Counted from the first letter of the stretch, positions 6,363-64,000 are shown. The stretch: DNA of 64,000 nucleotides from Candidatus Bathyarchaeota archaeon (GCA_963775465.1 CAVZIW010000010.1:32001-96000), one strand, 5' to 3'. Numbers and translations are program-made. The notes: generated from the letters alone by a model not told the origin.

Positions 6363-6514
6363 CTTACCAAGATGTTTCTTAGAATTAGACGCTTTGCAGG
6401 ATATTTTTTTGTTATTTTCAATACTTACTGCTGATTCATAAGAGATTTTAAAGCGATGGAAAATGTTTATAAGTTAACTTTGATATCGCGTTGTCTCTTT
6501 AAGAGGTAGAAAAA

Positions 6515-6664: not shown

Positions 6665-6741
6665 TCTTCAATTTTTTCTTGATGGTTGTACTCTTTTATA
6701 GTTGTGTCCCTTCGTTTAGTTGTTGCAGGAGAAGCTAAACC

Positions 6742-8792: not shown

Positions 8793-8978
8793 AGGGTTAA
8801 TGCTGGTGTTTTGGGATATGTTTAGCGACCCCTTTTATGGAAAGAGAATTAGTGAATCGACATCTAAAAAGACTTTGCCAAAGCTCCCAAAATGTTGTTC
8901 TTTAAAATTTGAGGGATATACGCAAGTCATTTATGGGTAAGAATAGTTTGTTTTTGCGTTCAGGAAGAGTAATACAAT

Positions 8979-12163: not shown

Positions 12164-12306
12164 CCTTATTAAAATTGCTATAATAAACGCAATGAGTTCA
12201 AAGTCGATTTTAACCTCTTTTACTGTGGCTGGGTATTTAAAAATCTTGGATTCTTTGGGAATGCTTAAATTTTAAAGTTACAATACCCGTAACTTGAGGA
12301 CTGCCT

Positions 12307-13380: not shown

Positions 13381-13442
13381 AAACATCAAGAAAGCCCTAA
13401 ATGTTTAAAACTCTCTACAGACCTTTTTAGGATAATAAAGAG

Positions 13443-13682
13443 GTGAATTTTTTGGTACAAATAACTCGTCAACAACTCCAAGAAAACAACGGAAAAAATG
13501 GGAAACCAGCCTATGTTGCTTATCAAGGCAAAGTCTACGAAGTTACAGACAGTAGCTTCTGGATGGAAGGAGACCACCTAGGAATGCATGAAGCAGGCAA
13601 AGATTTAACAGAAGAATTAGAAATGGCGCCGCATAAAGACGAAAATCTTCAGAGAGTAAAATTAGTAGGTGACTTGGTTTAG
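13443..13682 (+). CDS. Cytochrome b5-like heme/steroid-binding protein
   Basis: YVAYQGKVYEVT, WxxGxH, HxAGKDLT and APH motifs. Confidence 0.85.
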   Translation: MNFLVQITRQQLQENNGKNGKPAYVAYQGKVYEVTDSSFWMEGDHLGMHEAGKDLTEELEMAPHKDENLQRVKLVGDLV

Positions 13683-14914
13683 AAAATGAAGTTTAGCACA
13701 GAATCAACTCTGTGCAAAGCTTCAAACACATTTTTTATGTCTTTAACACTCAAAGTTTCCCTTGTTTTGTAAAGTTCATTAACTGTTGTGTTCAGGCAAT
13801 CAAAGGCCGATTTTACGTCTAAATCGTTGTTCATATTGCGTTCAAAATCAACTTTTATTTTCTTTGTTGTCTCTTCATGTTTTGCATTTTCATTAGTTGC
13901 TTTTATTTCTGTTATCTCAGAAATCATTTTTCTGAAACTATCTAACATTTGGCTCGTTTCTGCTATCTTTTCATAAGTAAAATTCAGTTTTTTCCTATAG
14001 CATCCATAGATTAAGAAGAACCTCAATTGATCACCGCTAAAACCCTGAGTGGAAACATCGCTTGTATAGAGTACATTGCCTTTGCTTTTGGACATTTTTG
14101 CGCCATCAACAAAAAGATGACCGCCATGAAGCCAGTAGCGTGAAAACTGTTTTCCTGAACATGCCTCTGCAACCGCCAGTGTGTAGTCGTGATGTCTGAC
14201 CAAATTGTCAATTCCTCCGCAGGCAACATCAATAGAAAAACCCATTTGTTTTGTTACTATTGCTGCATCTTGAATGTTCCAAGCCGGTCTGCCTCTGCCA
14301 ATTGTTGTATCGTAGCAAAAATCTTCTCGGTCGCAGCCATGCCACAAAACAAAGTCGCCTTTATTCCAAGGTGTTCCAGGATAAGTATCCAAATGGAAGT
14401 GTCGTTTCTGTTTGGGCCATTTTGTAATGTCAAGGTGTGCAAGTTTGCCAAAACCACCGAACTTTAGGGGGTCATAATATGCGTTTTTTTTGCCATTGTA
14501 AGAGTACCAATAAGCATATCCATTTTCGAGAAGTTTAGAAATTAATTTGACTGATTGATCAACTGCTTTTGATGCTCTAATTGGGTAGGTTGGCTTTTTG
14601 ATTCTTAATAGCTCAAAATCTTTAAAAAAAACGTCTTCGTTTTTTGCTGTCAACTCTTCAACTGTCACTTTTTCTTTTTTAGCTTGTAAAATTGCTTTGT
14701 CTTCGATATCTGTTAATGTCATTAATCGCTCGACTTTGTAGCCTTGGTATTCCATGTATCGTTGGAAGATGTCTTCGAAAAGGAAGGTGCGGAAGTTCCC
14801 GATGTGGGCCCGTTGATATGTTGAGGGACCACACGTGTACATTTTGACCTTCATGTCTTTGGCTGGTTTGAACCCTTCAATTTTGCAAGTTAATGAATTG
14901 AAAATTTTCAGCAT
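13679..14914 (-). CDS. Cysteinyl-tRNA synthetase paralog (truncated, atypical active site)
   Basis: YTCGP, HIGN, DFVLW and KMSKSKGN are present. GRPAWNIQD replaces GRPGWHIEC, and the protein ends after the helical DALR region. Confidence 0.8.
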   Translation of the reverse strand: MLKIFNSLTCKIEGFKPAKDMKVKMYTCGPSTYQRAHIGNFRTFLFEDIFQRYMEYQGYKVERLMTLTDIEDKAILQAKKEKVTVEELTAKNEDVFFKDFELLRIKKPTYPIRASKAVDQSVKLISKLLENGYAYWYSYNGKKNAYYDPLKFGGFGKLAHLDITKWPKQKRHFHLDTYPGTPWNKGDFVLWHGCDREDFCYDTTIGRGRPAWNIQDAAIVTKQMGFSIDVACGGIDNLVRHHDYTLAVAEACSGKQFSRYWLHGGHLFVDGAKMSKSKGNVLYTSDVSTQGFSGDQLRFFLIYGCYRKKLNFTYEKIAETSQMLDSFRKMISEITEIKATNENAKHEETTKKIKVDFERNMNNDLDVKSAFDCLNTTVNELYKTRETLSVKDIKNVFEALHRVDSVLNFIF

Positions 14915-14923
14915 TTTTTGGTT

Positions 14924-15460
14924 TTACTCAGTTGGATTTTGTTCTTGTTCGATTTGTCTTAATGTATTTTTTGCTTCCTCGACGTGGCGTTCTGCTTTAG
15001 TTTGCGAAACAAAAACGTGTCGAACAATACCCTTCTTATCGATAATGTATGTTACTCGCCCTGGGATTATTCCCATAGTTGAAGGTACACCATACAGTTC
15101 TCGCACTTTATTATCCACATCTGCAAGAAGAATAAATGGTAGTCCGTAATGTGTGGCGAAGGATTTGTGCGATTCTACGCTTTGCCCGCTTACTCCAATG
15201 ACTTCAGCTCCTAATTCTGTCAGTTCTTCATAGTTATCCCTAAAAGTGCATGCCTCCTTGGTGCAGCCTGATGTTTCATCTTTAGGGTAAAAATAGAGAA
15301 CTATGTTTTTCTTGCCCAAATATTCTGAGAGAGTTACATTGTCCCCCATCTGTGAAGGAAGTGTGAAATCAGGTGCTTTATCTCCTGCTTTAACTTGCAA
15401 AAAATCACCGAACAATATTGACTTTAATAGGCTATTATTGTTTTCGTAGATCAAAATCAA
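14924..15460 (-). CDS. bcp: Peroxiredoxin Bcp/PrxQ
   Basis: LYFYPKDETSGCTKEAC and RVTYIID motifs. The true start is probably near LQVKAGD. Confidence 0.9.
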   Translation of the reverse strand: MILIYENNNSLLKSILFGDFLQVKAGDKAPDFTLPSQMGDNVTLSEYLGKKNIVLYFYPKDETSGCTKEACTFRDNYEELTELGAEVIGVSGQSVESHKSFATHYGLPFILLADVDNKVRELYGVPSTMGIIPGRVTYIIDKKGIVRHVFVSQTKAERHVEEAKNTLRQIEQEQNPTE

Positions 15461-36071: not shown

Positions 36072-36589
36072 ATGAATCAACGAAAATAGTTTCAATTGAG
36101 GCAGGTTGATTGATGAACCCCTGAGGCTCAGGATGCAAAAGGTTCAAAACTGACAGAATTCATAAGCACGAGCCGAATCGGATTTAACCTAATTCACAAG
36201 CTTATTGCTATTTTAGCAGTCGGTTCTATCATGCATTTCTATTCCCAAGCAGTTTCGAGGAGCATAGGTTATTATAAAAGTGTGTCTTGTGCTATTCTTC
36301 ACTTTTATAGTCGTCCACTTATCGGCGTATTTTTCTCTAAAGATTTTTTCAGATTATGCTTTGTATTTCTCTGCCATCATACCATTTTTGATTCAAGTGT
36401 TTAATATTTTAACTATATAGTTGATTATATTTTGATTTATGTTGAATTCTGCATATGATAATTGACTATTAATTTTTAGTGTTTGGATATTGCAAAATGT
36501 TATATACTATTAGTTATGGAAAATAGCAGTTTAGTTGAGTGAATAGGCTTATGGCTTTTTTGCTCAATAAATTAAATGGAGAAAAAAAT

Positions 36590-39217
36590 ATGAAAATATT
36601 TAAAACTAAAGCGATAGCTACTGCAATATCTTTGCTTCTGGTGCTTAGCGTTGTTGTCTCTATCTCTAGCCTTCCTTCTGCTGATGCTTACAATACTTCA
36701 ACTCAAGATGCCATTGATGCTGGTATGAACTGGGATTTGCCCCAGGATGCTTCGAATCTTAGGCTTTTGATGTGGGAGCGGTATCAAGATCATATACCTA
36801 CTCAGGTGTATATGGTTATGTCGCCTAACCCGGTTGGTGTTGGACAGCAAGTTTCTTTTGTGTTGTTTATGCCCCAGCAGCCTCGAGGCGCAAACGCAGC
36901 TAATGACATTAGGTATTCCTACACTGTTGATGTTACTGATCCTAATGGTGTTAAAACAACTCTTGGACCTATCAAGTCTGACTCTACAGGAACTGCATAC
37001 ACGTTATACTCACCCTCAGAAGTTGGAAACTACACTGTTACCGTGAATTTCCTTGAATTACTCTATCTCTGGCAAGGATCAAGTACTGAACGAGACTATT
37101 ACGGTGTTACCTATAATAGTGCATCGTACACAAAGAATTTGATTGTCCAGCAGGAACCTGTTTTACCTACAGGTTGGACTGACCAACCCTTACCTACAGA
37201 GTACTGGGTTCGACCAATTGAAGGCACAAACACTCCCTGGTACCAGGTAGCAAGCAATTATCTCAGCGGTCCTGGCGACAATGACCTATATGGATCAGGA
37301 AACCAGTTCCAGAGGTATGGCGTTGCCCCTAACAGCGCGCACATTCTGTGGACAAAAGTCACTGAAGACGGCGGCCTAGTTGGCGGAGAGCAATTCTCTG
37401 TTCCTGGAGAAGTTTTCAATGCAGGTCACCAATATCAGACTCGGTTTACTAACCCAATAATCATGTGGGGACGTCTCTACTACGAGCTTCCAGTTACATG
37501 GGCTGGCGTTAACGGCGGCTGGATTTGTGTTGACTTAAAGACAGGCGAAACAATCTGGGAAAATAGGGACATGGGTGCATCTGGTACCGGTATATCTGAC
37601 CCGGCTTTCGGCTACTACTATGACTTAGACAACATGAATAATCACGGTGTTGTAACTCCCGGTTGGCTATTCTCAAGCAACTTTGGACACTCGATCCATC
37701 CACGCTACGGCATATATGACCAACTTCAATTAACTGGCGTTCCTTCTGGTTTTGAGGTACGCGCACAACAAGGCGAACATATCCGCGTCCAAGTTACCAG
37801 CAGCGGCAACATGTATCAATGGAACTCAAGCAAAGTCTTTGACGACTCTGAAAGCGGAGTACAAACAGCCAATAATCCCACGGATTTCGACTTTAACGTT
37901 TCAACTCCGTGGAGTGTTGGAATGTCTAGCATAAGCGTACAAGAAGTCGTTCTTGGCGAATACATCTTTGGCAGAAACGGCAGTCACCCAGTAGGCACAG
38001 GCGGTCCACGCTTTGACTATCCAAGTCCAGTAACTATATGGGCAGCAAGTCTAAAACCCGGAAGTGAAGGTCAACTTCTATACATGAAAAACATTGACAC
38101 AATACCAAATCCACCAGACGGCGGCGAAATCATGATGGAACGCGTCGGAGAAGGAGTAGCAGTTTTTGTGAAGCTCTTTGAACGACAATGGATTGGCTAT
38201 GACACCCAGACTGGCAATAAACTTTGGGAGTCAGATCCTCCGGAAGCAGAATTTAATCCATTTGGCTACTATAGCTTCCCAAGCTTGATTCATACTGAAT
38301 CTACTGCTATAGCTGACGGAAGATTGTTCACTGGTGGCTATACCGGAGCTGTGATGTGCTACAACCTAACTACTGGTCAAAAGATTTGGCAGTATGAAGA
38401 CTACACTGGCAGAACTGTATTTCCATACTTTACTTTGATGCTTGGCACGGTTGCTGATGGTAAAATCTTTGTTGGCACTCATGAGCACTCTGCTGATACA
38501 CCGCTGTTTAAAGGAAACAAAGTTCGCGCAATCAACGTTACTGACGGCTCTGAAGTTTGGGCTATGTATGGCTGGGCTCATCCTTACACGTTTGCTGTTG
38601 CTGATGGCACTTTGATCTACTGGAACAACTATGATCATCAGGTGTATGCTGTTGCGAAAGGGCCAACTTCGATGACTGTTGAAGCGCCTCATGCTGGTAT
38701 TGCTCTGGATCAAAGTCTCGTGATTACTGGTACTGTTATGGATATTTCAGCTGGTACACGTCAGCATGAGCAGGCTATGCGGTTCCCCAATGGTGTTCCT
38801 GCTGTTTCTGAGGATAGCATGAGTCACTGGATGGAGTATGTCTATATGCAGAAAGCTCGACCGACTAATGCTACTGGTGTTGAAGTATCTATCGATGTGG
38901 TTGATTCTAATGGCAACTACCGAAACATTGGCACAACTACTAGTGATGCAAACGGCGTGTTTAGTTTGGATTGGATGCCTGATATTTCAGGAAAGTATAC
39001 TGTGATTGCATCGTTTGCCGGCAGCGAAGGTTATTGGCCTTCACATGCAGAAACTGCTTTCGTAGTTGACGAGGTAGCACCAACAACAGCGCCAACGGAG
39101 GCTCCGCAGCAGTCTGCAGCTGACATGTACTTTGTTCCCGCAGTCGCAGGAATCATCGTAGCAATAGTGATTGTTGGCATTATGCTGGCTCTATTGCTCA
39201 TAAAGAAACGGCCATAA
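36590..39217 (+). CDS. Secreted, membrane-anchored PQQ-like beta-propeller protein (paralog 1)
   Basis: GGAGA RBS with ATG at 36590, signal peptide, PNPVGVGQ, PTEYWxRPI, TGxxxW propeller repeats, and C-terminal Ig-like domain + TM + KKRP. Confidence 0.85.
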   Translation: MKIFKTKAIATAISLLLVLSVVVSISSLPSADAYNTSTQDAIDAGMNWDLPQDASNLRLLMWERYQDHIPTQVYMVMSPNPVGVGQQVSFVLFMPQQPRGANAANDIRYSYTVDVTDPNGVKTTLGPIKSDSTGTAYTLYSPSEVGNYTVTVNFLELLYLWQGSSTERDYYGVTYNSASYTKNLIVQQEPVLPTGWTDQPLPTEYWVRPIEGTNTPWYQVASNYLSGPGDNDLYGSGNQFQRYGVAPNSAHILWTKVTEDGGLVGGEQFSVPGEVFNAGHQYQTRFTNPIIMWGRLYYELPVTWAGVNGGWICVDLKTGETIWENRDMGASGTGISDPAFGYYYDLDNMNNHGVVTPGWLFSSNFGHSIHPRYGIYDQLQLTGVPSGFEVRAQQGEHIRVQVTSSGNMYQWNSSKVFDDSESGVQTANNPTDFDFNVSTPWSVGMSSISVQEVVLGEYIFGRNGSHPVGTGGPRFDYPSPVTIWAASLKPGSEGQLLYMKNIDTIPNPPDGGEIMMERVGEGVAVFVKLFERQWIGYDTQTGNKLWESDPPEAEFNPFGYYSFPSLIHTESTAIADGRLFTGGYTGAVMCYNLTTGQKIWQYEDYTGRTVFPYFTLMLGTVADGKIFVGTHEHSADTPLFKGNKVRAINVTDGSEVWAMYGWAHPYTFAVADGTLIYWNNYDHQVYAVAKGPTSMTVEAPHAGIALDQSLVITGTVMDISAGTRQHEQAMRFPNGVPAVSEDSMSHWMEYVYMQKARPTNATGVEVSIDVVDSNGNYRNIGTTTSDANGVFSLDWMPDISGKYTVIASFAGSEGYWPSHAETAFVVDEVAPTTAPTEAPQQSAADMYFVPAVAGIIVAIVIVGIMLALLLIKKRP

Positions 39218-40637: not shown

Positions 40638-42089
40638 TTATTCTGAAACCTCCCTCTTTATGAGTTTCTTTAGCTCTTCAGCGAGAAGCGACAGTTGGTG
40701 CTCATTTGTTTGTACTGAGGTTTCAGTTATGTTCCCCCGCAATAATGCGTCTCTGGTTAGAAGTTCTTCAGGGTTTTCTCCCCAGGCGCGAATTATCTCC
40801 TTTAGTTGCGTAATTCTGTTGGCTTGTGTTTTTGGTCTTATGGCTAATCCTGCTGACTGGTACATGTTTCTGAGTGTTTCTACGCCTAGGCTTTGGACGT
40901 CTTCGTAGGTGTCTACTGTGTGTCCCATCATGTAATTGATGATTTCCGAGTCAATCTTTACTGCGCTCATCTGGGTCCTAAAGAATTTTCTGAGGCTATG
41001 TGTTCTGACGCTATACATCCAGCTGTCTGGTAGTTTTTTGGCGATTTTTGTGCTTACCACTAATTCGTGAACTATTTGACCTATAGTTTTCTCGGTAACG
41101 CCAATTACTCTGTCGGCGACACGGCTGTTTCGTATTAATGGTGAGTCGTCTGTTAGCTCTTCGGGCGGCGTTCTCTTGTTCCCGCGTTTTCTGTCCTCGA
41201 TGTATAGTTTTAGCAGGTGGCTTGCTTCTGCGTTGATGAAGGTATCGTAGTCGTGGTATTTTCCTTTGGTGATGTCTGCTTCAACGTGGATGTGGATGGG
41301 TACTCTGTTGGCTTCTAAGTCTTCGCGGACATGTCTGTATTTGAGTTTGGCGAATGTTCCTTCTCTGAATCCGCCTGTTGCTATAGCGGCGATTATGAAG
41401 CTTTCTCGGGTGGCTGATTTGTCTAGCATTAGGGTGATTTCTTCTGGTTTGGGTGCTCTGTCTTTGTAGACGGCTTTGCGTCTGAGAGGTTCTAAGAGCT
41501 TTACTTCAGCGCCGTTTACATGGTAGAAGGTTTTGACGGCTTTTATGCAATTGTTAACTGAGTTGGGTTTTAATCCATTGTCTTGAAGTTCTGCTACATA
41601 GTCGTTTAGGAAGCCGCTGTGATTTTGTACTTTAAGTGGATCGGGGATTGCTCCTACTGGTTTTATGTCCTGTATTATTGTGTCGGGGCTATGTCCTAGC
41701 CAAGTTGCGTATTTTCTTAGTTTGACTGTGTACATTAGACAGCTTTGATTTGAGGCTGAGCAGTGTCTGAAGAAGTGGCGTGCAACTTTTATTAGGCTCT
41801 TATTTTCGAAGATGTATGGGATTATGCTTGGTTGGTAGCTTAGGCAGGATTTTATGATGTATTCGACTAAGCCGATTTCTTGAGTTTCTAGGATTTTGTT
41901 TTGGTCTATGCTTATTGGTGTTCTGAGTTTAAAATCGTTTAAGCTTCTCTCAATGATGATGGTGTCTTGTTGGAATATCAGCGGCAGTTTAAGGTTTTTC
42001 AGTTGTTCAACGGATAGTTTGCGTGTTCGAGTTATAGCGGGGGCTATGGTTTTTGCTCTTTGGATCATGGTTTCTTCTCTCCCTTGCAA
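40638..42089 (-). CDS. Tyrosine recombinase/integrase
   Basis: Catalytic set present: R (GFREG), K (ITKGK), HSLR, MGH and Y (DTYED). Confidence 0.9.
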   Translation of the reverse strand: MQGREETMIQRAKTIAPAITRTRKLSVEQLKNLKLPLIFQQDTIIIERSLNDFKLRTPISIDQNKILETQEIGLVEYIIKSCLSYQPSIIPYIFENKSLIKVARHFFRHCSASNQSCLMYTVKLRKYATWLGHSPDTIIQDIKPVGAIPDPLKVQNHSGFLNDYVAELQDNGLKPNSVNNCIKAVKTFYHVNGAEVKLLEPLRRKAVYKDRAPKPEEITLMLDKSATRESFIIAAIATGGFREGTFAKLKYRHVREDLEANRVPIHIHVEADITKGKYHDYDTFINAEASHLLKLYIEDRKRGNKRTPPEELTDDSPLIRNSRVADRVIGVTEKTIGQIVHELVVSTKIAKKLPDSWMYSVRTHSLRKFFRTQMSAVKIDSEIINYMMGHTVDTYEDVQSLGVETLRNMYQSAGLAIRPKTQANRITQLKEIIRAWGENPEELLTRDALLRGNITETSVQTNEHQLSLLAEELKKLIKREVSE

Positions 42090-44341: not shown

Positions 44342-44704
44342 TTACCCTTTTTTTAGTTGGAGGTCAAATCTTTTGACGAGTCGTTTTAGCTCTCTTTTTT
44401 CTTTACCATCATAGAAGAGGTCAATGATTTCATCTCTTCCTTTCTCAGTTAACTTCAACAAAACATCTGAGCTACCCTCAGGGTCTTTAACAACACTCCA
44501 AGAGTCACCCTCCCGCAGCTCATTAAGAAAATTTTCACGGTCCACTTTAGGATTCAAATCCTTGAAAAGAGAATAGAACATAATCCCACTATGGACTGCA
44601 AGTGTATATTTGACAGCGACTTTGTAAATTGGAGGTTTCTTCTCAAGTAGCTCCAGTAGCTCTTCTTTGGCACTCTTTGCCTTGTGAACATTACTTTTTT
44701 CCAT
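44342..44704 (-). CDS. Hypothetical protein (possible winged helix)
   Basis: LKLTEKGR motif; coupled to the PolX gene. Confidence 0.55.
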   Translation of the reverse strand: MEKSNVHKAKSAKEELLELLEKKPPIYKVAVKYTLAVHSGIMFYSLFKDLNPKVDRENFLNELREGDSWSVVKDPEGSSDVLLKLTEKGRDEIIDLFYDGKEKRELKRLVKRFDLQLKKG

Positions 44705-44710: not shown

Positions 44711-45361
44711 TTACCTCGTTTCTTCTGCTTTCACTGTAGTCTTGATATTGACCTTCATCGGTTGCTTTGTTGGAGTGTTACAATGTTCAGGAAGCATCCA
44801 AACGGGTTTGCTGTTCATTATCTCCCGTTCGGAGGGCAAAGGATATGGCAAACCCAACGCTTCAAACACGCTGGTCTCGTTTTCTCCAGCAACTGCCACG
44901 CTGTCTTTGATTAGGCCTTCACTGTACTTGAGCCGCATCCCTTTGCAAAATGCGTGTGCAGCAAGCCACATATTATGTTCAGCTGAACCCGTTCGGACAA
45001 GTAGGTGAATGCCGAAAGTGGATGGCTGAGCTCGATAGAAGTCCACTTGGAAAAAGCCGTTTTGGCAGGGCACAAAGGCTTTAATGACGCTGTTGCCTGA
45101 GCAGTTAGGTTTAGATTTTAATTGTTTTAGTTTTTCATTTATCTTTTGCCAATCAGCATCGTTTTTTGCTACTACAACAAAGTCAATATCATGTACCGTT
45201 GTTTTTTGTCGTCTTATGCTGCCTGCAACCTCAATCAACTCGCATAGAGGTTCCACAGTTGTTTTAATTGAGGCGGCTATTTTTTGGGCTTGTGTTAAAT
45301 CCAGTTTATCGATAATTTTAGCTGTATCTTGAGGAAATAATGTGGCTTGTCTTTTCATCAT
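44711..45361 (-). CDS. Minimal family X DNA polymerase (palm + thumb only)
   Basis: AGSIRR, HDIDFV, VDF, TGSAEHN and ExxVFxALGLPYxxPxERE motifs. Confidence 0.85.
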   Translation of the reverse strand: MMKRQATLFPQDTAKIIDKLDLTQAQKIAASIKTTVEPLCELIEVAGSIRRQKTTVHDIDFVVVAKNDADWQKINEKLKQLKSKPNCSGNSVIKAFVPCQNGFFQVDFYRAQPSTFGIHLLVRTGSAEHNMWLAAHAFCKGMRLKYSEGLIKDSVAVAGENETSVFEALGLPYPLPSEREIMNSKPVWMLPEHCNTPTKQPMKVNIKTTVKAEETR

Positions 45362-45761: not shown

Positions 45762-46385
45762 TTAGCCCTTTCTTCGAGCTCCACAATTTGGGCAGAAAAC
45801 TGAAGTTTGGGGCATTAATCCGGCACAATATGAGCATGGAATCAAAACAACTTCTCGAGTAACCTCTTTCATGATTGCAGGCGAATTTTGACCAGGCTGA
45901 GGCCTCGCGACCTGGATCTCGTATTCCTGCGTTTGTATGACCGGCCTTCCCACTGATTCCATGACAGCCCTCAACATCCACTTTACGTTGTGGTCAATGC
46001 TGTAGAGCGTCTGCTGAGCTGCAAAAGATATGCCTATCGCGTAATTGTACGTAGCCCCAAAACCTTGAGGTATAGTTGAGGCACCAAAAACCTTGCAGCT
46101 GCCATTGCAGATTTCTGCTCTGTCCCAATACTCGCTTTGCTGCGTCCCATACTGGCTGCTCCAAGTCTTAGTTTTCTTTATGCTCTCAATGCAGCTCAAC
46201 CGCACAAGAACTTGGTTTACCACGAATTCCTCATCGGAAGCCACCTTTAATTTACCAGTTACTTGCTCCCCCAGAGAATACTGCGATTTGTCCGCGTACA
46301 ATTCGATTCTTGCTTTCGGCAGAGTTGCCCCGGGCGGATTCAGAATTTTGGACAGCCAACTTGGACACATAGAGCGACCGCTCAC
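45762..46385 (-). CDS. Arrestin-N/Spo0M-like beta-sandwich + C-terminal Zn ribbon
   Basis: YxxGExVxGxL, VxWxLxAxxxxxGRP and CxYC...FCPNCG motifs. Confidence 0.65.
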   Translation of the reverse strand: MSGRSMCPSWLSKILNPPGATLPKARIELYADKSQYSLGEQVTGKLKVASDEEFVVNQVLVRLSCIESIKKTKTWSSQYGTQQSEYWDRAEICNGSCKVFGASTIPQGFGATYNYAIGISFAAQQTLYSIDHNVKWMLRAVMESVGRPVIQTQEYEIQVARPQPGQNSPAIMKEVTREVVLIPCSYCAGLMPQTSVFCPNCGARRKG

Positions 46386-48318: not shown

Positions 48319-49029
48319 TTACTTCGACAATATCTCGTAGGTGAATTCAACCTCGTTTGGTTTTGTATGTGAATGAAGCCCAACACCGAGATTGTCAAAT
48401 TTGTCTGTGAAGGTAGCTGCGTAATAGCAAATCTGATCGTCCTTGTTCATTTCCAATATTTTTCCTATAAGTGGAATTACCCCTCCAGCCAAGTCCGTGA
48501 CCGTTGAGAGCATAGGATTAGCTGTTGTCGCCAAAGTGGTTAGGACTTTCTGGATGTCTTTGAACCCTTGGTTGTCGTTGACAGCTTTAAGAATTTCTGC
48601 AGCATCTCTTTGGGGCTGGTCACTTTCCACTATTTGTAGCCTAATGTCCAAGTACCGAGGTAACTTCCCAGGAGAATTCTGATATATTGCTAATCCGTTT
48701 CCTCCAATGTCTAAAACATCGCCTTTCTTGACATTTATAAATGTCTTTACATCGTATGATAACGGTTTTTCCTCTGAACCATCGGCAACTGAATAAACCA
48801 AATAGATTTCTGCATTTTTATCCCATGCCGGTTCATGGATGTTCAATATTCTGACTTTTTTTAACCTGATCATTACATCCGTAATACTGGAGTCCAAAGT
48901 CATGCGCATTAAGTTTGACGACATACTTTTCGAGAAACGCCTGCGTTCTAAATTCTCTATTAATTCCAAACTTGGTTGCTCTACAATGTCAGGCATTACA
49001 TCTGCTTTTTCTAACACAATAAATGGCAA
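48319..49029 (-). CDS. Hypothetical protein: beta-sandwich-like with an inserted amphipathic helical segment
   Basis: 236-aa ORF divergent from the protease-MBL operon, with a GGTGA RBS. Confidence 0.7.
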   Translation of the reverse strand: MPFIVLEKADVMPDIVEQPSLELIENLERRRFSKSMSSNLMRMTLDSSITDVMIRLKKVRILNIHEPAWDKNAEIYLVYSVADGSEEKPLSYDVKTFINVKKGDVLDIGGNGLAIYQNSPGKLPRYLDIRLQIVESDQPQRDAAEILKAVNDNQGFKDIQKVLTTLATTANPMLSTVTDLAGGVIPLIGKILEMNKDDQICYYAATFTDKFDNLGVGLHSHTKPNEVEFTYEILSK

Positions 49030-49176
49030 TCAAATCACCATATTATGGATGTGTTTTTTATCATATAAAATCTTTCGCTAGAATCAATATATTTTTTAAC
49101 AAAAAAAATTATTAGATTATCATAAATCAGTCAAACAGTTTTATTTGCTTGCAAATGAATTGTATACTGAGCAGAA

Positions 49177-51039
49177 ATGCAAGCAAGACTCCCTTTAATG
49201 ATTCAAGATCCCTCAACTTCAAAAAAATATAAAGATTTACCAAACTTAGGGCTGGAGGGCTTCAATCCGAAGAATGAGGAGTTCTTTCTATCAGGTCCCA
49301 TTTCCAAGCAGATCGCCGTTCTGGATTTTGATCCGGAAACAGGCAAATTGGTTAAAGGTGCAAAATGGCACAAACCACCACCAAAACGGAAAAGGGGTTG
49401 GTACGAAAACGACGGGGAAGATGAGGAAAAAAAGAGGCGATTTGACGAATACGACAAACTGAATCTGGAAGATTTGACAGCTCCGGCTTTCTTGCAAGTA
49501 AACACCTTTGCTACTGTACTTAAAACAATTTACATGTTACGCGAGAGCGAGAAGGAAAAGGACAAAGATAAAGGGGATACATTAGGGCACTCAATTACTT
49601 GGGCTAGCGGTTTGCCCCAACTGCTTGTGATTCCTAGAGCCGGACGAATGAAAAATGCGTTTTATCATAGAGAATCTAATAGCCTCCAGTTCTTCATGTT
49701 TTCTCCCAAAGATAATCCTGATCAAACGGTTTACACGTGCCTTTTTCGAGACATAGTTGCCCACGAAACAGGACACGCTATAGTAGATGCAATCGCCCCT
49801 GACCTATATCATGCCCAACAGAGTCAAGCGCTGGCAATGCATGAATCCATAGCCGATCTAACGGCTCTTCTCATGGCCATATCGAGTTGGAATCTTAATA
49901 GAATCGTTCTCAAGAAAAACCACGGTATTATCAGAGATTCCAACGACTTCAGCACTATCGCCGAAAACTGGAGAACAGAATTAGAGGAAGGGGGTAGACA
50001 TATGCGAAACTTGCTAAACAATAAGACTCTAAATTCCCTAAGGAGCGATGAATGCCATGAACTCAGCGAGGTTTTAAGTGGAGCCCTGTACAATGTGTTT
50101 CTGAAAATATATGAAGACTTCAAAGATGAACTAGAACCTCACTATGCCAAAGATCCAAGATTTAGTCGGAATCTTTGGTTACACGTTTCTCGTTCTGCTC
50201 TTTATGACTATGCTGCTGAACGCTTCAAACAGATGATTTTTCGGGCACTTGATTATCTGCCTCCCGGTGATGTCTCATTTGTTGACTATGGACGAGCAAT
50301 AGTAGCTGCCGATTCTGTCGGATACTATGGAGAAGAACGCACTCTAAAAATTCGTGACTGGATTACAAACGAGTTTTTTAATAGAAATATTATTAATGAC
50401 AAAGATGCGTTGGACGTTAGCACTTTTTTCAAAGATGATGCGTTGAATGGTTTTGATGTTTCGAATCTCTGCAAAAGTGACTGGGAGGCTTATCGATTCG
50501 CAAACAGCCCCGAAGGTCGTAGGTTGTTGTGCATACCACCTGAAATACCCTTTGAAGTACTCTCCCCTCGATTAGAGGTTAGAAAGAAACCGATTGGAAA
50601 GCCACCTCTCTGTGATCCGGCTAACATCCAAGAAACTCATGAGTGTATTTTCAAGGTTGCCTGGGATCCTATTGAAAAGAACCCGATTGGATCGGGCTAT
50701 CCGGAAAATCGCCGATTCAGAGTTGGAACAACTTTAGCACTATATTGGGAAGATGGAACTGTCCTGGCACTTTTATCTTCTGCTCCACCGCACAAAACAA
50801 ACACTGACAAACGCTACACAAATCAGAAACAGCGGTCCATTGTAGCCGATGAATTTAACGAAAAATCTGAGAACCGAACCAATTTCGTAAAATGCCTAAT
50901 TAAAGAAGGCTTGCTCAAGTTTAATCAACATTCATTTGGTCCAGACGGGCGCACTCCTCTGCTTTCCTGCATTCAAGCTGAAGATTTGGATGGTATAATG
51001 CGAATAAGAGGAGCTGCAAAGATGTTACATATCATTTAA
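49177..51039 (+). CDS. Cytoplasmic gluzincin metalloprotease (thermolysin/M4-M36-like)
   Basis: NAFY, DIVAHETGH (HExxH), HESIAD (ExxxD) and a later His (CHELS). No signal peptide. Confidence 0.85.
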   Translation: MQARLPLMIQDPSTSKKYKDLPNLGLEGFNPKNEEFFLSGPISKQIAVLDFDPETGKLVKGAKWHKPPPKRKRGWYENDGEDEEKKRRFDEYDKLNLEDLTAPAFLQVNTFATVLKTIYMLRESEKEKDKDKGDTLGHSITWASGLPQLLVIPRAGRMKNAFYHRESNSLQFFMFSPKDNPDQTVYTCLFRDIVAHETGHAIVDAIAPDLYHAQQSQALAMHESIADLTALLMAISSWNLNRIVLKKNHGIIRDSNDFSTIAENWRTELEEGGRHMRNLLNNKTLNSLRSDECHELSEVLSGALYNVFLKIYEDFKDELEPHYAKDPRFSRNLWLHVSRSALYDYAAERFKQMIFRALDYLPPGDVSFVDYGRAIVAADSVGYYGEERTLKIRDWITNEFFNRNIINDKDALDVSTFFKDDALNGFDVSNLCKSDWEAYRFANSPEGRRLLCIPPEIPFEVLSPRLEVRKKPIGKPPLCDPANIQETHECIFKVAWDPIEKNPIGSGYPENRRFRVGTTLALYWEDGTVLALLSSAPPHKTNTDKRYTNQKQRSIVADEFNEKSENRTNFVKCLIKEGLLKFNQHSFGPDGRTPLLSCIQAEDLDGIMRIRGAAKMLHII

Positions 51040-51056
51040 AAATAGAAGGTATATTC

Positions 51057-52292
51057 ATGGATAAGATTCGAGTACGCGCATATAACGTTCTCTTTGGTGA
51101 CGCTTTCTTAGTCACATTTCCAGAAACTAAGTTAGACGGCACAGTTGAAACTCGGAACATCCTTATTGATGTTGGAAATCTTCTTCGCAAAGGTGGCAGT
51201 GATAAGGTTTTCAAACCGGTTGTAGAGGACATCCTCAAAGAACTCAACGGCAGACCGCTTGATCTTTATATTATGACGCATGAACATCTCGATCATGTTC
51301 AGGGTTTGCCATATGCCGAAGAAAAACTGTACACAGAAACTGATGATGAACTTGCAAAGAGACTCAAGACCCGTTACACATGGCTCACCGCCTCATCTGA
51401 GGATGGATACTACGAAAAACACCCCAAGGCGAAGGAGAAACATTTGGAGTTCTCTGCTACCTACAAAGAAATTGACAGATTCATGCAAACACTAGAAGCA
51501 GACGTGCCTTTAACAGATAGATTATTATGGCTCAATAACTCGGACAATACCAAAAACTGTGTAAACTACTTGAAGGGGATAGGTGAGAAGACATTTTACG
51601 TTTCTCGTGCATGCGCTAGACACAAAGGAATAGTTTTTGATCCTAATGAGTGCCACCCCTTTAGCGAAGCTAGAATTGAAATTCTGGCTCCGGAAGAGGA
51701 TACATCCATTTACTATTCAAAAACTAGAATTGCACCAATGAGCTTGGGTGTCACTGAGACTTCAACTGGAAGCGGGAAGCGCCCGTCTCTAACGGATGTA
51801 TTTCCCCCTTCTGGAGTGGACGCTGGAGCTTTCTATGAATTAGTTAAAATGAGAAGAGATGGGCATTTTGATAACCTGCTTGCAATCGACAAAGCTGCCA
51901 ATAACACTAGCGTTGTGTTTTGTCTTGAATGGCGTGATTTTCGATTGCTTTTCCCAGGTGATGCGGAAAAAGAGAGCTGGAATGTAATAAACGACGTTTT
52001 TCCAAGTATTCTCAAACCGGTGCATTTCTTGAAGATAAGCCATCATGGAAGCCACAATGGGACTCCAGAACAAACGATATTAGAGAAAATATTGCCACAG
52101 ACCAGAGTTGACGACAAACCACGCAAAGCGCTTCTTTCTGCCACAAGTGAAGAAGTATACACAAACGTCCCTGACCCACAAACAGTAGATCGGATTAGAC
52201 AACGCTGCGACAACCTTTACGAAGTTGAAGAAGTAGAACTCGGAAAACACATAGATATCGAGTTTGAGGCAGAACGTATTAGCTCTGAATAA
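51057..52292 (+). CDS. ComEC/Rec2-type metallo-beta-lactamase-fold hydrolase (putative nuclease)
   Basis: GDAFL, LIDVG, THEHLDH, NNTS, LFPGDAE and KISHHGSHNGT motifs. Confidence 0.85.
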   Translation: MDKIRVRAYNVLFGDAFLVTFPETKLDGTVETRNILIDVGNLLRKGGSDKVFKPVVEDILKELNGRPLDLYIMTHEHLDHVQGLPYAEEKLYTETDDELAKRLKTRYTWLTASSEDGYYEKHPKAKEKHLEFSATYKEIDRFMQTLEADVPLTDRLLWLNNSDNTKNCVNYLKGIGEKTFYVSRACARHKGIVFDPNECHPFSEARIEILAPEEDTSIYYSKTRIAPMSLGVTETSTGSGKRPSLTDVFPPSGVDAGAFYELVKMRRDGHFDNLLAIDKAANNTSVVFCLEWRDFRLLFPGDAEKESWNVINDVFPSILKPVHFLKISHHGSHNGTPEQTILEKILPQTRVDDKPRKALLSATSEEVYTNVPDPQTVDRIRQRCDNLYEVEEVELGKHIDIEFEAERISSE

Positions 52293-58744: not shown

Positions 58745-61309
58745 TTATGGCCGCTTTCGTAGCATCAGTAACGCCAGTATAATTCCAACGATAAAGATTG
58801 AAACTATTATTCCAGCAACGGCTGGAACAAAGTACATGTCAGCGACAGATTGCACTGGAGCTTCAGTTGGCATTGGAGTTGCAGGAGCTGGATCAACTGC
58901 AAAAGAGGTCACTGCGTGTGATGGCCAGTAAGATTCGCTGCCTGCAAAAGAGGCGTAAACAGTGTATAGACCTTCTATGTCAGGTTTCCAGTTATAGGTG
59001 AAAAATCCGTCAGTGCTTGTTGTGGTACCGATTTCGCGGTAGTTTCCATTTGAGTCAACAACGCTCAGTACGATTGGAACGCCTATTGTGTCTGTAGGGC
59101 GAGGTTTCTGCATGTAAACGTAGTCCATCCATAGACCTTGACTTGCATCTGAAACTGCAGGAACACCGTTGGGGAAACGTGCAGCTTGCTCGTTTTGATT
59201 TGTGCCGGCAGCAATATCTGTAATTGTACCTTGAATTAATACACTACTTCCCAAGTTAACAACGTTATTTGGCACACTGACTGTCGTTGCGCTTGGTCCT
59301 TTGCCAATACAGTATAGTTGACCATCATAATAGTTGTAGTATACCCAAAATCCGTCTGCGACAACAGTGCCATCCCGACCGAGTTGTCCTCCGAATGCAT
59401 CAAGAGTAAAGATTTCTGTTCCGTCAGTTGCATTAACACATCTTGCAAGTGCCCCTTTCCACATTGGCGTATCAGGTGAGTGTTCACTAGACATCATGTA
59501 GACTTTTCCGTCAGCAAGAGCATATATGAATGTAGGGTATCTACCCCAAGATGACTGCAGATTTGTACTTGTGCTGTTTCCTGTTCCACCATTTCCGTAG
59601 CTCCATAACAGTGTTCCATCTTTAGTATCCCAGCAATATAGCACTCCATCCCATCCTATGTTGTAGAGACGTCCGTATGCGGTAGCTGGAGTTAAGCCGA
59701 CAGTGCCCAAATCGAAATATGCTAAGTCAGAAGCACCTTCAACAGGAGGGGTCTGCCACATTAAATCTCCCGTGTCAAGATTGTAACCTATCTGCAATGA
59801 TGTTTCTTTGTCTCGGAACATTATAACTCGGTTGACTGGATCTATTGCGGTTAATCGACGTGTTACGTTGTTAGGCGGCGCTGAATAATCTTTCATCCAT
59901 AACAATGAGCCTTCGTGGCCTGGTTTCAGACTAATAGCCCACATAGTGTACGGATCTGGGGTGAGAAATGAACTAAATCCGGCAAAGGAGGTCGTTCCTA
60001 AAATTATGTCACCAACTAACGCGTACCTTATGGCTGTTGACGTTGGCAGTTCTGAGGGTAAGGTGACATTCCAGTCATAACGCTCCGGTAAGCTTGCATC
60101 TATCTCGCTATTGATCCATCCTGCAGGGTTAGTACCGGAAAGAGGCAGTAGTCTGGAAGAGTTCCATTGAGCAAGCCAATGATTTCTCAAGTCAATCTGG
60201 TAGCGCAGTATTTCTCCTTTTGGTCCAGCTGCAGCAAAACCTGAAGGCACATTAGTAACATTCAAACCGGTTAGCTGTCCCGTGCGGGGGTCAATTGCCT
60301 GCCATGTCTGAGTGCTAAATCCAGAAGTTACCATAAGCAAACCATCTGGCATTACGCCATGCTGATTCTCATAGTCAAGAGCATAATAGTAGCCAAATGA
60401 TGGAACCCCAACACCTGTAGTATTGAAGGTCCATAGTTCTTCTCCAGTTCGTAGATCGACCGCTGCATATCCGCCGTTGCTTCCGTAATTCTGGTAGGGC
60501 ATTTCAAAGAACAACCTACCACCCATCGCTATTGGGTTGAGAAATCGCGGATTATAAGTGAGCCCTTGATAGAAGGTTTCACCCGGTGTTCCTAAGCCGC
60601 TTCCTCCTACAACACCTGCATCACTGAGGGGTTTGGTCCACATTACGTGTGCGCTACCAGGTGCTGTGCCGTCTGGTTGGTATAATTGATGTGCTGTATT
60701 TCCAGATATGTATGGACTTCCTAGCCAGTTTGACGCAATTGTCCACCAGTCAGTGTTTTGTCCTTCGATGGGTCGTGTCCAGTATTCTGTTGGCAAGGGA
60801 TAACTGTTTATGGGAGCAGGTAAAGGTTCGTCTTGCACGGTTATTTTTACTGTCTTGCTAGTTGCACCTAGAAAGACTGTGTTGGTCCATTGTCTCATCG
60901 TGGAAGTGTCATTCCATGTATATACCTGATCAGGAAAGCTAAACACAAAAGAATAAGTGCCAACCTGGTCAGGGGTATATGAAGCCACTTGCCCGTTTCC
61001 TGTATCTTGAATGACAGGCCAATACATGGTTTCATTTTTTCCATCGGGTTTTGTGATCGTTAGGGTGTAGTCGTGTCTTCTTATGTCATTAGTTACTGCT
61101 GCACCAGGAAAAGTTGGGTTAGCGAACATGATTATTGTAAGTTTTTGCCCTACACCTATTGGGTCTGGTGACACGTCAAGGAGTGGCCAAGATTGTGTTT
61201 TTGACTCCGCACTAGCAGGTTGCAGAAATACAATGGAAACAAGCGTTGACATTAGCAGAAGCATACATATTATAGTTACAAGTTTTTTTTTTGAAAATTG
61301 CGATAACAT
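58745..61309 (-). CDS. Secreted PQQ-like beta-propeller protein (paralog 2)
   Basis: Same architecture and motifs as 36590..39217 (PxGVGQ, PTEYWTRPI, RFPNGVPAVS, ADMYFVPAVAGII). Confidence 0.85.
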   Translation of the reverse strand: MLSQFSKKKLVTIICMLLLMSTLVSIVFLQPASAESKTQSWPLLDVSPDPIGVGQKLTIIMFANPTFPGAAVTNDIRRHDYTLTITKPDGKNETMYWPVIQDTGNGQVASYTPDQVGTYSFVFSFPDQVYTWNDTSTMRQWTNTVFLGATSKTVKITVQDEPLPAPINSYPLPTEYWTRPIEGQNTDWWTIASNWLGSPYISGNTAHQLYQPDGTAPGSAHVMWTKPLSDAGVVGGSGLGTPGETFYQGLTYNPRFLNPIAMGGRLFFEMPYQNYGSNGGYAAVDLRTGEELWTFNTTGVGVPSFGYYYALDYENQHGVMPDGLLMVTSGFSTQTWQAIDPRTGQLTGLNVTNVPSGFAAAGPKGEILRYQIDLRNHWLAQWNSSRLLPLSGTNPAGWINSEIDASLPERYDWNVTLPSELPTSTAIRYALVGDIILGTTSFAGFSSFLTPDPYTMWAISLKPGHEGSLLWMKDYSAPPNNVTRRLTAIDPVNRVIMFRDKETSLQIGYNLDTGDLMWQTPPVEGASDLAYFDLGTVGLTPATAYGRLYNIGWDGVLYCWDTKDGTLLWSYGNGGTGNSTSTNLQSSWGRYPTFIYALADGKVYMMSSEHSPDTPMWKGALARCVNATDGTEIFTLDAFGGQLGRDGTVVADGFWVYYNYYDGQLYCIGKGPSATTVSVPNNVVNLGSSVLIQGTITDIAAGTNQNEQAARFPNGVPAVSDASQGLWMDYVYMQKPRPTDTIGVPIVLSVVDSNGNYREIGTTTSTDGFFTYNWKPDIEGLYTVYASFAGSESYWPSHAVTSFAVDPAPATPMPTEAPVQSVADMYFVPAVAGIIVSIFIVGIILALLMLRKRP

Positions 61310-63230: not shown

Positions 63231-64000
63231 ATGAAAAAACTAAACAAGAAATCATTCTCTTTAATTTCATTGTTTCTAATGCTATCAATGGTTATCCCCT
63301 TTGCAGCCGTTCCTGCTACAACTGCCCACACACCAGCATGGGAGATTCCCTCTTTCGCTTACATTGCTGCGCAACCAAGTCCCGTGGGCGTAGGGCAACA
63401 AGTACAGGTTTACATGTGGGTTGACGCACCTTTAACATCAGCCTCCGAAGCCAACGACATAAGAAGACACGACTACACCCTAACGATCACAAAGCCTGAT
63501 GGAATTAAAGAAACAGAGCAGTGGCCAATCATTTGGGATACAACCGGCGTACAATTTTATTCATTCACACCCGACCAAGTTGGCGACTACACTCTGCTAT
63601 TTGAGTACAAAGGCCAAGAATATACTTGGAACACAACGTACTCTACAAGAACTTGGGCAGGAGATATTTTTCTGGCAGACAGCGCAACAACAACATTAGT
63701 TGTGCAACAAGAACCATTAACTCCACCTATACTAAGTTATCCAATCCCAAGCGAATACTGGACTAGACCCATAGAAGGACAGAATACCGATTGGTATAGT
63801 ATCTCCTCCAACTGGCTCAATTCTCCATTCAATTGGGTCGGAGACAGTGGCACACAGGGTGCAGTGTCATCTTGCGATACCCAAGGCGGTTACGGCAGAT
63901 TACAGCCAGACGGTATTGCACCTAACAGCCCACACATAATGTGGACAAGACCTATGCAGGACGGCGGAGTTGTTGGCGGCGACATATATGCTGTCGAAGG
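63231..64000 (+). CDS. Secreted PQQ-like beta-propeller protein (paralog 3), 3'-truncated by the window edge
   Basis: GGAGA RBS, MKKLNKK signal peptide, PSPVGVGQ, NDIRRHDYTLTITKPDG and PSEYWTRPIEGQNTDW. Confidence 0.85.
   Translation, partial: MKKLNKKSFSLISLFLMLSMVIPFAAVPATTAHTPAWEIPSFAYIAAQPSPVGVGQQVQVYMWVDAPLTSASEANDIRRHDYTLTITKPDGIKETEQWPIIWDTTGVQFYSFTPDQVGDYTLLFEYKGQEYTWNTTYSTRTWAGDIFLADSATTTLVVQQEPLTPPILSYPIPSEYWTRPIEGQNTDWYSISSNWLNSPFNWVGDSGTQGAVSSCDTQGGYGRLQPDGIAPNSPHIMWTRPMQDGGVVGGDIYAVE

Follow-up and report, generated by a model that had tools for sequence, protein, structure and literature searches.

A gluzincin-like protease and a ComEC-like metallo-beta-lactamase form a conserved gene pair in Archaea and Bacteria: a candidate metalloprotease version of the protease-gated pro-nuclease module

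Gating of ComEC-like metallo-beta-lactamase (MBL) proteins by proteolysis was published in November 2025 for partners of the trypsin-like, caspase-like and S8 protease families (PMC12799240; PMC12642450). As presented in the main text of Tuck et al. (2025, Science; PMC12799240), HamM, Avs1a and CanC are ComEC-like MBL pro-nucleases in which two insertions block the active site, and partner trypsin-like or caspase-like proteases cut these gating insertions. The main text of Evans et al. (2025, bioRxiv; PMC12642450) distinguishes three protease-associated MBL clades (trypsin-like, caspase-like and S8), describes an α/β-hydrolase that is likewise a zymogen effector, counts MBLs and α/β-hydrolases among the main protease-licensed effectors, and in its Discussion raises stress roles for some protease-effector modules. 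That main text contains none of the words metalloprotease, metallopeptidase, zinc, gluzincin, thermolysin or archaea, and the main text of Tuck et al. mentions neither metalloproteases nor thermolysin ('zinc' stands there in a reference title only, and 'archaea' in general statements and a reference); a supplementary figure of the latter may show a metalloprotease clade. Our literature search returned no work joining pro-nuclease and metalloprotease, and nothing relevant joining metallo-beta-lactamase, metalloprotease and anti-phage defense. Here we describe a gene pair encoding a thermolysin-like protease (gene 1) and a ComEC-like MBL (gene 2), found in a 64,000-nucleotide stretch of DNA from a Candidatus Bathyarchaeota archaeon (GCA_963775465.1 CAVZIW010000010.1:32001-96000; hereafter the window). 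A sequence-only reading of the window had proposed the pair as a new kind of defence system; the principle of proteolytic gating being already published (PMC12799240; PMC12642450), the pair represents a further protease class. What is new is the zinc-protease class, the stand-alone two-gene form, the presence in Archaea, a docking motif found either in trans or in cis, and the alternative astacin-like and hydrolase partners.

Gene 1 (49177-51039, + strand; 620 amino acids) and gene 2 (51057-52292, + strand; 411 amino acids) were read as open reading frames (ORFs) separated by a 17-bp spacer (51040-51056, + strand) that carries an AGAAGG stretch before the ATG; both genes probably share one transcript. 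Both ORFs, the gap and the motifs NAFY, HETGH, ESIAD, THEHLDH and NNTS, together with a low-complexity loop in gene 2, lie where the sequence-only reading had placed them, and the linkage of the two genes extends well beyond this archaeon. Taking one genome per species, 148 stretches of DNA encode a relative of gene 1, and in 65 of the best 80 loci, which were kept for analysis, a gene-2 homologue (38-55% identity) follows directly 3' on the same strand, its start within about 100 bases. Clustering of the 720 ORFs from these loci gave no third gene common to more than 12 of them, and both clusters of that size consist of ORFs that overlap the two genes in antisense. Protease and MBL make up a conserved unit.

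The AlphaFold2 model of gene 1, made with 49 homologues, has a predicted local distance difference test score (pLDDT) of 91.7 and a predicted template modelling score (pTM) of 0.94. In VIA-align it superposes on M36 fungalysins (Z 26.1, root-mean-square deviation (rmsd) 3.4, 317 aligned residues, range 3-566) and on thermolysin (Z 21.4, rmsd 3.9, 282 aligned residues, range 1-406), and its top Foldseek matches are aureolysin and thermolysin (E 2.8e-6 to 1e-5). M4 structures cover residues 1 to about 406-413 of the 620, leaving the C-terminal extra of about 200 residues that had been read from the sequence; it lies beyond the M4 core, and the M36 alignments reach into it as far as residue 566. 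When the family profile was compared with the Protein Data Bank (PDB), thermolysin was matched at E 0.026 over the active-site stretch HExxH...ExxxD only, with HETGH aligned to thermolysin HELTH and HESIAD to thermolysin NEAISD. HETGH (residues 196-200; 49762-49776, + strand) supplies two zinc ligands and the catalytic Glu, with H196, E197 and H200 invariant in 49 sequences, and HESIAD (residues 222-227; 49840-49857, + strand) supplies the third zinc ligand Glu and the Asp, with H222, E223, A226 and D227 invariant in the same number. NAFY (residues 160-163; 49654-49665, + strand), in which N160, A161 and Y163 are invariant in 49 sequences, is presumably the counterpart of the substrate-binding edge strand N112-W115 of thermolysin. 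Gene 1 has the features of a gluzincin, namely HExxH followed some 20-25 residues on by a Glu within ExxxD and a two-lobe fold, and it is not a secreted pre-pro-enzyme of the kind found in M4 and M36 proper. It can be said to have no propeptide because residue 1 of the model aligns at residue 5 of mature thermolysin, and a simple 19-residue Kyte-Doolittle hydropathy scan, which was the signal and membrane check for both proteins, found no signal-like or membrane segment in gene 1 (top mean 1.29) or in gene 2 (top mean 0.88), as the sequence-only reading had held. Pfam gave nothing above cut-off on gene 1 (best Peptidase_M13, 13.5 bits vs 24.5), with no M4 or M36 model matching up to E = 1; no PADLOC model matched, and NCBIfam gave nothing meaningful. 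Judged from its sequence and model, gene 1 is a cytoplasmic, propeptide-less gluzincin that forms its own family inside the thermolysin clan, and the conservation of its catalytic residues indicates that it is built as an active enzyme.

The AlphaFold2 model of gene 2 (pLDDT 87.5, pTM 0.89) has as its closest fold the ComEC beta-lactamase-like domain 9ic4 (E 2.5e-11, TM score 0.73 on the 266-residue target). Positions 3-88 of the family profile align with residues 2-78 of that chain and positions 269-334, the C-terminal metal-binding half, with residues 148-212. The THEHLDH-to-NNTS distance in gene 2 is about 200 residues, which the sequence-only reading had called long for this family, correctly so because about 180 profile positions separate the two aligned blocks, against about 69 in ComEC, which makes the net insertion about 110 residues. 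THEHLDH (HxHxDH, residues 74-80; 51276-51296, + strand) has H75, E76, H77 and H80 invariant and D79 conserved in at least 90% of 40 sequences, and the C-terminal half (NNTS 282-285, GDAE 301-304 and SHHGS 328-332; 51900-52052, + strand) has S285, D302, A303 and H330 invariant. This conservation of the metal residues in 40 partners suggests that gene 2, too, is built as an active enzyme, and we regard it as a predicted latent DNase. The Pfam Lactamase_B cut-off was passed over residues 31-86 only. In PADLOC, gene 2 gave partial matches to LmuA-MBL (2.3e-17; residues 3-90 and a second stretch), RTasMBL, PDC-M48B and Avs1a. The Lamassu, DRT, PDC-M48, Avs1 and 6A-MBL models of PADLOC and NCBIfam match its ends and miss its middle; four PDC-M48B models match in part (best E 2.7e-10, residues 280-351), and on that PADLOC candidate, PDC-M48, the literature search found nothing. 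The scores of curated models are far below their cut-offs (NCBIfam Avs1a, 41.5 vs 420 bits; the ComEC/Rec2 model TIGR00361, 30.9 vs 190.05 bits). Compared directly with an LmuA-type MBL and an S8-linked MBL from two of the loci (L021 and L082, respectively), gene 2 shows equal length and equal placement of the insertions at 19-20% identity.

The region between the HxHxDH motif and NNTS (residues 90-281; 51324-51899, + strand), about 110 residues longer than in ComEC, has low pLDDT in two blocks, 189-194 and 231-250, the former within a stretch (187-194) that is peculiar to few sequences (33-37 of 40 rows are gapped there). Residues 219-231 (51711-51749, + strand) are conserved with the consensus YYGRFxP[ML]ALG and would be a candidate cleavage region. 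They are followed by a variable low-complexity linker, or 'gate loop', delimited by the make-up of its alignment columns (residues 232-249; 51750-51803, + strand; pLDDT 58-72), which in alignment occupies the sequence place of the second gating insertion of canonical gated MBLs as described in the main text of Tuck et al. (PMC12799240). The low-complexity loop itself, residues 231-244, reads GVTETSTGSGKRPS.

Directly after this linker stands a motif of about 20 residues, PPxGVDAGAFYxLVxxRR (residues 250-269; 51804-51863, + strand), with P251, G253, V254 and F259 invariant, which we call the handle. A strict pattern found it inside the MBL in 59 of the 65 loci that have one (of the six misses, two are truncated at the end of a contig and one has a frameshift), and in none of these 65 as a tail of the protease. 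Among the 15 loci without an MBL, nine encode a protease with an in-frame C-terminal tail carrying the handle, three run off the contig edge, ending within 160 bases, and three (L064, L066 and L070) have neither MBL nor tail, so that the handle is a protease tail in nine of the 12 evaluable MBL-less loci; a looser pattern applied to all six frames of the 15 gave no further match. Tailed proteases run past the usual ...MLHI end by 35-44 residues, comprising a variable Pro/Ala/Ser-rich linker, the handle and then the stop, except in locus L010, where the chain continues straight into the next domain. The core of the handle, PPPGVDAGAFYDL, is identical in seven tails and the linker before it varies. 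Divergent tailed forms are those of L020, from Roseicyclus, and of two additional proteins, P0155 and P0245, among 145 new cluster representatives; none was found among the 120 closest homologues. In a quick tree with support from the Shimodaira-Hasegawa-like approximate likelihood-ratio test (SH-aLRT) and no bootstrap, the tailed forms comprise one Acidobacteriota clade, L039 and the distant L020, and a single origin is possible. As the handle is carried either by the MBL, in trans, or by the protease, in cis, the motif is kept with the protease whatever the partner.

A complex of the full protease with MBL residues 1-380 was predicted with ipSAE values of 0.79, 0.78 and 0.75 (median 0.78), which express the model's own confidence and are not a measurement, against 0.00 for the best of three controls; the ipSAE mark used is reached by 58 of 80 solved complexes and by two of 110 mismatched pairs, counts that apply here only approximately, as the prediction used our own alignments. 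The runs share at least 88% of contacts, with a pLDDT of at least 77 in the partner, and the modelled interface has 95-102 confident contacts. The tightest of these place MBL residues 251-265, within the handle, on three protease patches: residues 38-58 (49288-49350, + strand; G40 and P41 invariant, L38, D39, A47, D50 and G56 at least 90% conserved), residues 146-173, the strands around NAFY (49612-49695, + strand; Q148, L149, P153, A155, G156 and R165 invariant), and residues 576-597 of the C-terminal extension (50902-50967, + strand). Alternate MBL residues between 222 and 233 touch the protease as an extended strand would, and further predicted contacts are made by residues 150-156 of the first insertion and by residues 305, 333 and 338 beside the metal site. 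That the handle is the tightest contact agrees with the motif swap, which was found independently, giving two pointers to one element. No comparable solved complex that the score could echo is known to us, since PDB sequence searches with the family profiles returned only ComEC and thermolysin chains. The sequence-only reading had the protease triggered through its C-terminal domain, which finds no support here: the modelled role of residues 576-597 is to help hold the MBL motif.

Our data suggest that the pair may be a two-gene, self-contained, metalloprotease version of the protease-gated pro-nuclease module, a reading to which we give slightly better than an even chance and which builds on the linkage of the genes, the two folds, the conserved catalytic residues, the insertion, the exchange of the handle between cis and trans, and a predicted complex that passes its controls. 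Under this reading gene 2 would be a DNase held latent by the insertions between its metal-binding motifs, and the protease would grip it by the handle, which would dock in a pocket formed by the N-lobe sheets and the C-terminal extension and would thereby bring the variable loop, together with the conserved residues that precede it (about 220-249), up to the catalytic cleft. A signal, most likely virus infection, would then cause the protease to cut the gate, and the cut nuclease would degrade DNA and stop the infected cell by abortive infection or growth arrest. In other loci, the protease would alternatively be wired to an astacin-like pro-protease or a lipase-like α/β-hydrolase. The zymogen switch acting on the MBL insertion that the sequence-only reading had suggested is in keeping with the linkage, the conserved catalysis, the insertions, the model and the motif swap; from them we infer that the MBL is latent until cleaved and then acts as a DNase, and likewise the trigger and the immune role, abortive infection included.

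Several observations weigh against the pair being such a module. The first insertion of gene 2 (residues 90-175) is predicted to consist of well-folded helices with pLDDT mostly above 90, whereas published HamM has two disordered insertion loops, and the score of the complex is, as said, self-assessed by the model. No sensor domain was recognised in the protease. Among proteins of 1086-3100 amino acids only three relatives were found, none of them joined to a STAND, helicase or like sensor, which is weak evidence. Defence genes are scarce nearby: the 13 neighbouring ORFs of the window gave no PADLOC match, a credible defence-type neighbour was seen at only seven of 60 loci, and in the 40 loci scanned with Pfam most neighbouring genes are for housekeeping, metabolism or transport. 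Finally, the handle is kept in cis beside an astacin partner, which argues that it serves the protease itself, in its structure or its autoinhibition, beyond any recruitment of a substrate. Our confidence is held where it is because defence neighbours are scarce, no sensor is recognisable, and the handle is in cis in the astacin loci.

Of the described systems, Canu (KaeCanABC) is similar in layout, in that it likewise has an MBL pro-nuclease encoded 3' of a stand-alone protease without fusion to any classical defence enzyme, insertions between the metal motifs, and mobile, patchy loci (main text of PMC12799240). It differs in its protease, a cysteine protease of caspase-like type that has an Ig-like domain and is accompanied by an additional subunit, CanB, whereas gene 1 encodes a zinc protease resembling M4/M36, and most of its loci lack a third conserved gene; a docking handle and its exchange between cis and trans are not described for Canu in that main text. 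For Canu anti-phage activity has been demonstrated, whereas the gluzincin-MBL pair is known from sequence and models. HamMAB, Avs1/2/4, Lamassu and DRT likewise combine a ComEC-like MBL of about 375-410 amino acids, with insertions that gate it there, and an adjacent protease (main texts of PMC12799240 and PMC12642450). In the Hachiman, Avs, Lamassu and DRT systems, however, the MBL gene is upstream of the protease gene and not downstream as here, and a serine protease joined to a sensor (STAND, HamA and others) does the cutting, after conserved isoleucines in two disordered loops. The S8 subtilisin-MBL clade described in the main text of Evans et al. (PMC12642450) resembles the present pair in that a protease family of normally secreted type serves in the cytoplasm as the partner of an MBL, with a different catalytic class from that of gene 1. 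Compared with thermolysin (M4) and fungalysin (M36), gene 1 shares the two-lobe fold, HExxH plus Glu-xx-x-Asp and the NAFY edge strand, but has neither a signal peptide nor an FTP/PepSY-type propeptide; it is cytoplasmic, is extended at the C-terminus by about 200 residues and has a partner of its own. Among solved structures ComEC/Rec2 is nearest to the MBL core both in fold and in sequence, and differs from gene 2 by its membrane domain and by lacking the approximately 110 inserted residues.

The sequence-only reading had named enrichment of the pair in defence islands as a check, and here the association was weak. The two nearest ORFs of at least 150 amino acids on each side were scanned at 60 loci (200 ORFs), with a PADLOC threshold of E <=1e-5 in a first batch (121 ORFs from 40 loci, which were also scanned with Pfam) and E <=1e-10 in a second. 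The seven positive loci have an AAA_15/AAA_21 ATPase (L013; HEC-01A, 1.3e-54), an LmuA-type MBL directly 5' (L021; 2.9e-53), SIR2-PtuA and PtuB of Septu (L030), a PDC-M05A nucleotidyltransferase just 5' of the pair (L035, Thermoplasmata), a further MBL (L043), a trypsin-like protease directly 5' (L046) and PDC-M06B (L061), the first four of these loci coming from the first batch and the last three from the second. Some PADLOC matches were discarded: those to mad3/mad8 in L027, L029 and L071 are ABC transporters (by Pfam, and for L071 by likeness), an oxidoreductase match in L025 is a luciferase-like monooxygenase by Pfam, and a REase_II match in L030 is an HhH-GPD protein by Pfam, L030 being counted for its Septu/SIR2 genes. 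In L021 the LmuA/Avs1a-type gated MBL (838-2058) lies about 430 bases 5' of the gluzincin gene on the same strand, with no serine protease and one 135-amino-acid ORF only between the two; one protease may serve two nucleases there.

The picture on plasmids is stronger than that given by the neighbours at these loci. The family is matched by 67 plasmid records, of which 35 are typed conjugative, and the neighbourhoods of two hand-picked records were inspected. On the conjugative plasmid pRphaR630c of Rhizobium phaseoli (L082), a trio of hydrolase, protease and MBL lies inside a cluster of protease-effector and defence genes, comprising an S8 subtilase paired with a phage-tail-lysozyme/amidase, PDC-S15 FRG/pYEATS (6e-66), an S8 subtilase paired with an LmuA-type MBL (2.3e-46), DUF3616 and SIR2; only 2.5 kb separate the S8-MBL pair from that of gluzincin and MBL. 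The two S8 pairs of this island are at 2568-5344 and 12108-15291. A plasmid of Rhizobium ruizarguesonis carries a divergent protease whose MBL is split, and a Septu pair (PtuA, 2.5e-151) stands 3.5 kb away.

These neighbourhoods bear on the reading that the pair is not immune at all and is an accessory module of stress or turnover, serving for instance a regulated self-digestion of DNA and protein during starvation or development or the processing of taken-up DNA, or else that the MBL acts on a small molecule. No recognisable defence neighbour was found in 53 of the 60 loci, the mostly metabolic and transport genes of the Pfam-scanned loci would suit such a role, and so would the Acidobacteriota astacin form, which stands in conserved synteny (L013, L015 and L017) and looks vertically inherited. 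The family is also common in taxa of complex lifestyle (Myxococcota, Actinomycetota and Chloroflexota), and stress roles for some protease-effector modules have been raised (Discussion of PMC12642450). A non-immune role is however difficult to reconcile with the patchy distribution of the family (one of 41 related genomes) and its crossing of domains at 45-50% identity, with its carriage by conjugative plasmids on which Septu, SIR2 and PDC-S15 genes are its neighbours, and with an MBL whose nearest solved fold is a DNA nuclease and whose nearest profile models are those of defence MBLs. We consider it doubtful, with a minor share of the probability.

A second alternative is that the two proteins form an inhibitor-type heterodimer resembling a toxin-antitoxin complex, with one protein masked by the other (the active face of the nuclease covered by the protease, or the protease plugged by the handle as by a propeptide), and which fires by dissociation or degradation with no cut of the gate. 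The large interface of 95-102 contacts, which includes MBL residues 305, 333 and 338 near GDAE and SHHGS, would fit such masking, as would a protease that has no propeptide of its own. The retention of the handle as a tail in cis at loci that lack the MBL, as if it regulated or completed the protease, points the same way; that it is in cis in astacin-type loci suggests that the handle also, or instead, restrains or completes the protease. Yet the protease catalytic residues are all invariant, implying that proteolysis is under selection, the published MBL relatives are activated by cleavage (main texts of PMC12799240 and PMC12642450), and cleavable tethers are typically built in this way, with a variable linker next to a docking element that is conserved. 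An inhibitor complex of this type is in our view unlikely, and slightly less probable than a non-immune role. That the two genes are unrelated neighbours resembling a system by chance is scarcely credible, as order, strand and close spacing are kept in 65 of 80 loci across many phyla and the motif swap and the complex prediction against controls would have to be coincidental too.

Effector swapping, seen at loci in which the protease has other partners, also speaks for the protease-gated pro-nuclease reading. In eight Acidobacteriota loci, what follows the tailed protease is taken to be an astacin-like metzincin. Seven of the ORFs match Pfam Astacin (L010, L011, L013, L014, L015, L039 and L079), five of them also PPC, and L017 was assigned to the group by clade and synteny, its longest ORF having no Pfam match and its printed translation seeming out of frame. 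The astacin partners begin with an acidic, non-hydrophobic segment carrying a conserved Cys and Asp, which suggests, as an inference from sequence, that they may be cytoplasmic zymogens with a Cys/Asp switch. In L010 a single ORF of 985 codons (5959-8916) encodes gluzincin, linker, handle, astacin and PPC, and is either a natural fusion or an artefact of assembly or frameshift. The astacin cassettes of L013, L015 and L017 lie in conserved synteny between pseudouridine synthase and thymidylate synthase/DHFR genes, which suggests that the cassette is vertically inherited in that Acidobacteriota lineage; L014 belongs to the same tail clade as these three. A different partner, a 437-amino-acid lipase-like α/β-hydrolase (LCAT/PGAP1/DUF676), is encoded directly 5' of the protease in L054, L055, L062, L064, L071 and L082, which belong to one clade from Alphaproteobacteria and Desulfobacterota, and L072 has part of such a gene; L064 retains the hydrolase gene and has lost the MBL. 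Rare N-terminal fusions join a distant gluzincin domain to an LCAT-type hydrolase (P0268) or to an S8 subtilase (P0270).

Beyond these loci the family is large. A word-indexed search gave 1113 relatives of gene 1 at E <=1e-3 among 7999 scored candidates, and the names shown for them are all 'hypothetical' or blank, none with a Pfam domain. An exhaustive search of representatives at 50% identity gave 3774 clusters at E <=1e-3, 2733 at <=1e-10 and 1255 at <=1e-30. Members occur in Bacteria, where they are common in Myxococcota, Actinomycetota and Chloroflexota, and in the archaeal Bathyarchaeia, Promethearchaeota, Thermoplasmata and Theionarchaea. The protease of the window clusters in the quick tree with Bathyarchaeum, Promethearchaeota and Anaerolineae sequences (SH-aLRT 99), and family members from different domains share 45-50% identity. 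Within related genomes the family is present in one of 41, the window's own, and was found in none of 24 same-genus and none of 16 same-order genomes; the genome itself is archaeal, its small-subunit rRNA gene scoring 1474.5 bits with the archaeal model and 1097.5 with the bacterial one. Such a distribution suggests an accessory, mobile cassette that has moved between Bacteria and Archaea.

More distant relatives extend the architecture. Loci L005 and L049 encode a second, highly divergent gluzincin (26-32% identity) in tandem after the first protease; that of L005 (9437-12859) comes with its own 482-amino-acid MBL, and that of L049 runs from 4456 to the contig end. As the second protease of L005 has an MBL of its own, the architecture reaches beyond the family of gene 1 to at least two distant families. 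Distant members are called 'serine protease' in public annotation and in automatic cluster names, which looks like a propagated misannotation, perhaps from the S8 fusions. Two partial gluzincin-like matches (43-45% of the query, 26-28% identity) were seen among 50,697 phage records, and 88% of one M36/M4-like protein cluster in the ESM Atlas is viral, so that relatives of the protease may be encoded by viruses.

That proteases license latent death effectors was established in late 2025 as a widespread principle of bacterial immunity, and for serine and cysteine proteases only, which are fused to known sensors or serve them. If the pair works as proposed, it would add a zinc-protease class with thousands of members (1255 clusters at E <=1e-30 and 50% identity) and extend protease-licensed immunity to Archaea, where few abortive-infection mechanisms are known; with no separate sensor, the protease itself would have to read the signal. 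The handle would offer a concrete, mutable element with which to study how a protease recognises its pro-effector and is restrained by it, and with the astacin variant bacteria would have a cascade of proteases. Because its members are labelled 'hypothetical' or, wrongly, 'serine protease' and no PADLOC model exists, the family is invisible to present defence finders. We further propose, tentatively and with somewhat less than an even chance, that the window holds the founding archaeal member of a fourth, metalloprotease class of such modules, a minimal two-gene system whose protease acts as sensor and activator alike, while the portable handle licenses it in trans or in cis, the protease is a hub rewired to at least three latent effectors, and the cassette has been exchanged between Archaea and Bacteria.

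In the window, gene 1 is preceded by an A+T-rich intergenic region (49030-49176, + strand), presumed to hold the promoter, which it shares with a divergent ORF (48319-49029, - strand). The pair had been placed inside an integrase island. A 483-amino-acid tyrosine-recombinase-like ORF (40638-42089, - strand) does lie 7 kb 5' of it, but its Phage_integrase match stays below the Pfam cut-off (22.4 vs 27.1 bits), the window has no tRNA gene, and no direct repeat longer than 20 nucleotides flanks the pair, the search giving only three 20-nucleotide pairs (85-90% identical) that do not bracket the region. In a synteny search the two flanking proteins, too, had no match in five same-genus genomes, and no borders of an island were found. 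Pfam identified among the neighbours of the pair the recombinase-like ORF, a ribbon-helix-helix (RHH) protein, a Pol-beta-type nucleotidyltransferase and an arrestin-like protein. The nucleotidyltransferase (44711-45361, - strand; 216 amino acids) matches DNA_pol_B_thumb at 1.1e-11 and the palm at 7.9e-4, and next after its gene comes a 120-amino-acid ORF of no assigned family (44342-44704, - strand); the PDC-M05A protein encoded next to the pair in L035 is a nucleotidyltransferase as well. The arrestin-like protein (45762-46385, - strand; 207 amino acids) has weak arrestin-N-like matches and a C-terminal zinc-ribbon-like CxxC...CxxC. Three large paralogues of 850-890 amino acids are encoded at 36539-39217 (+ strand), 58745-61309 (- strand) and 63231-63998 (+ strand, running off the window); all three have an N-terminal signal-like segment and the two complete ones also a C-terminal hydrophobic anchor, so that they resemble cell-surface proteins, and they bracket the variable region that holds the gene pair.

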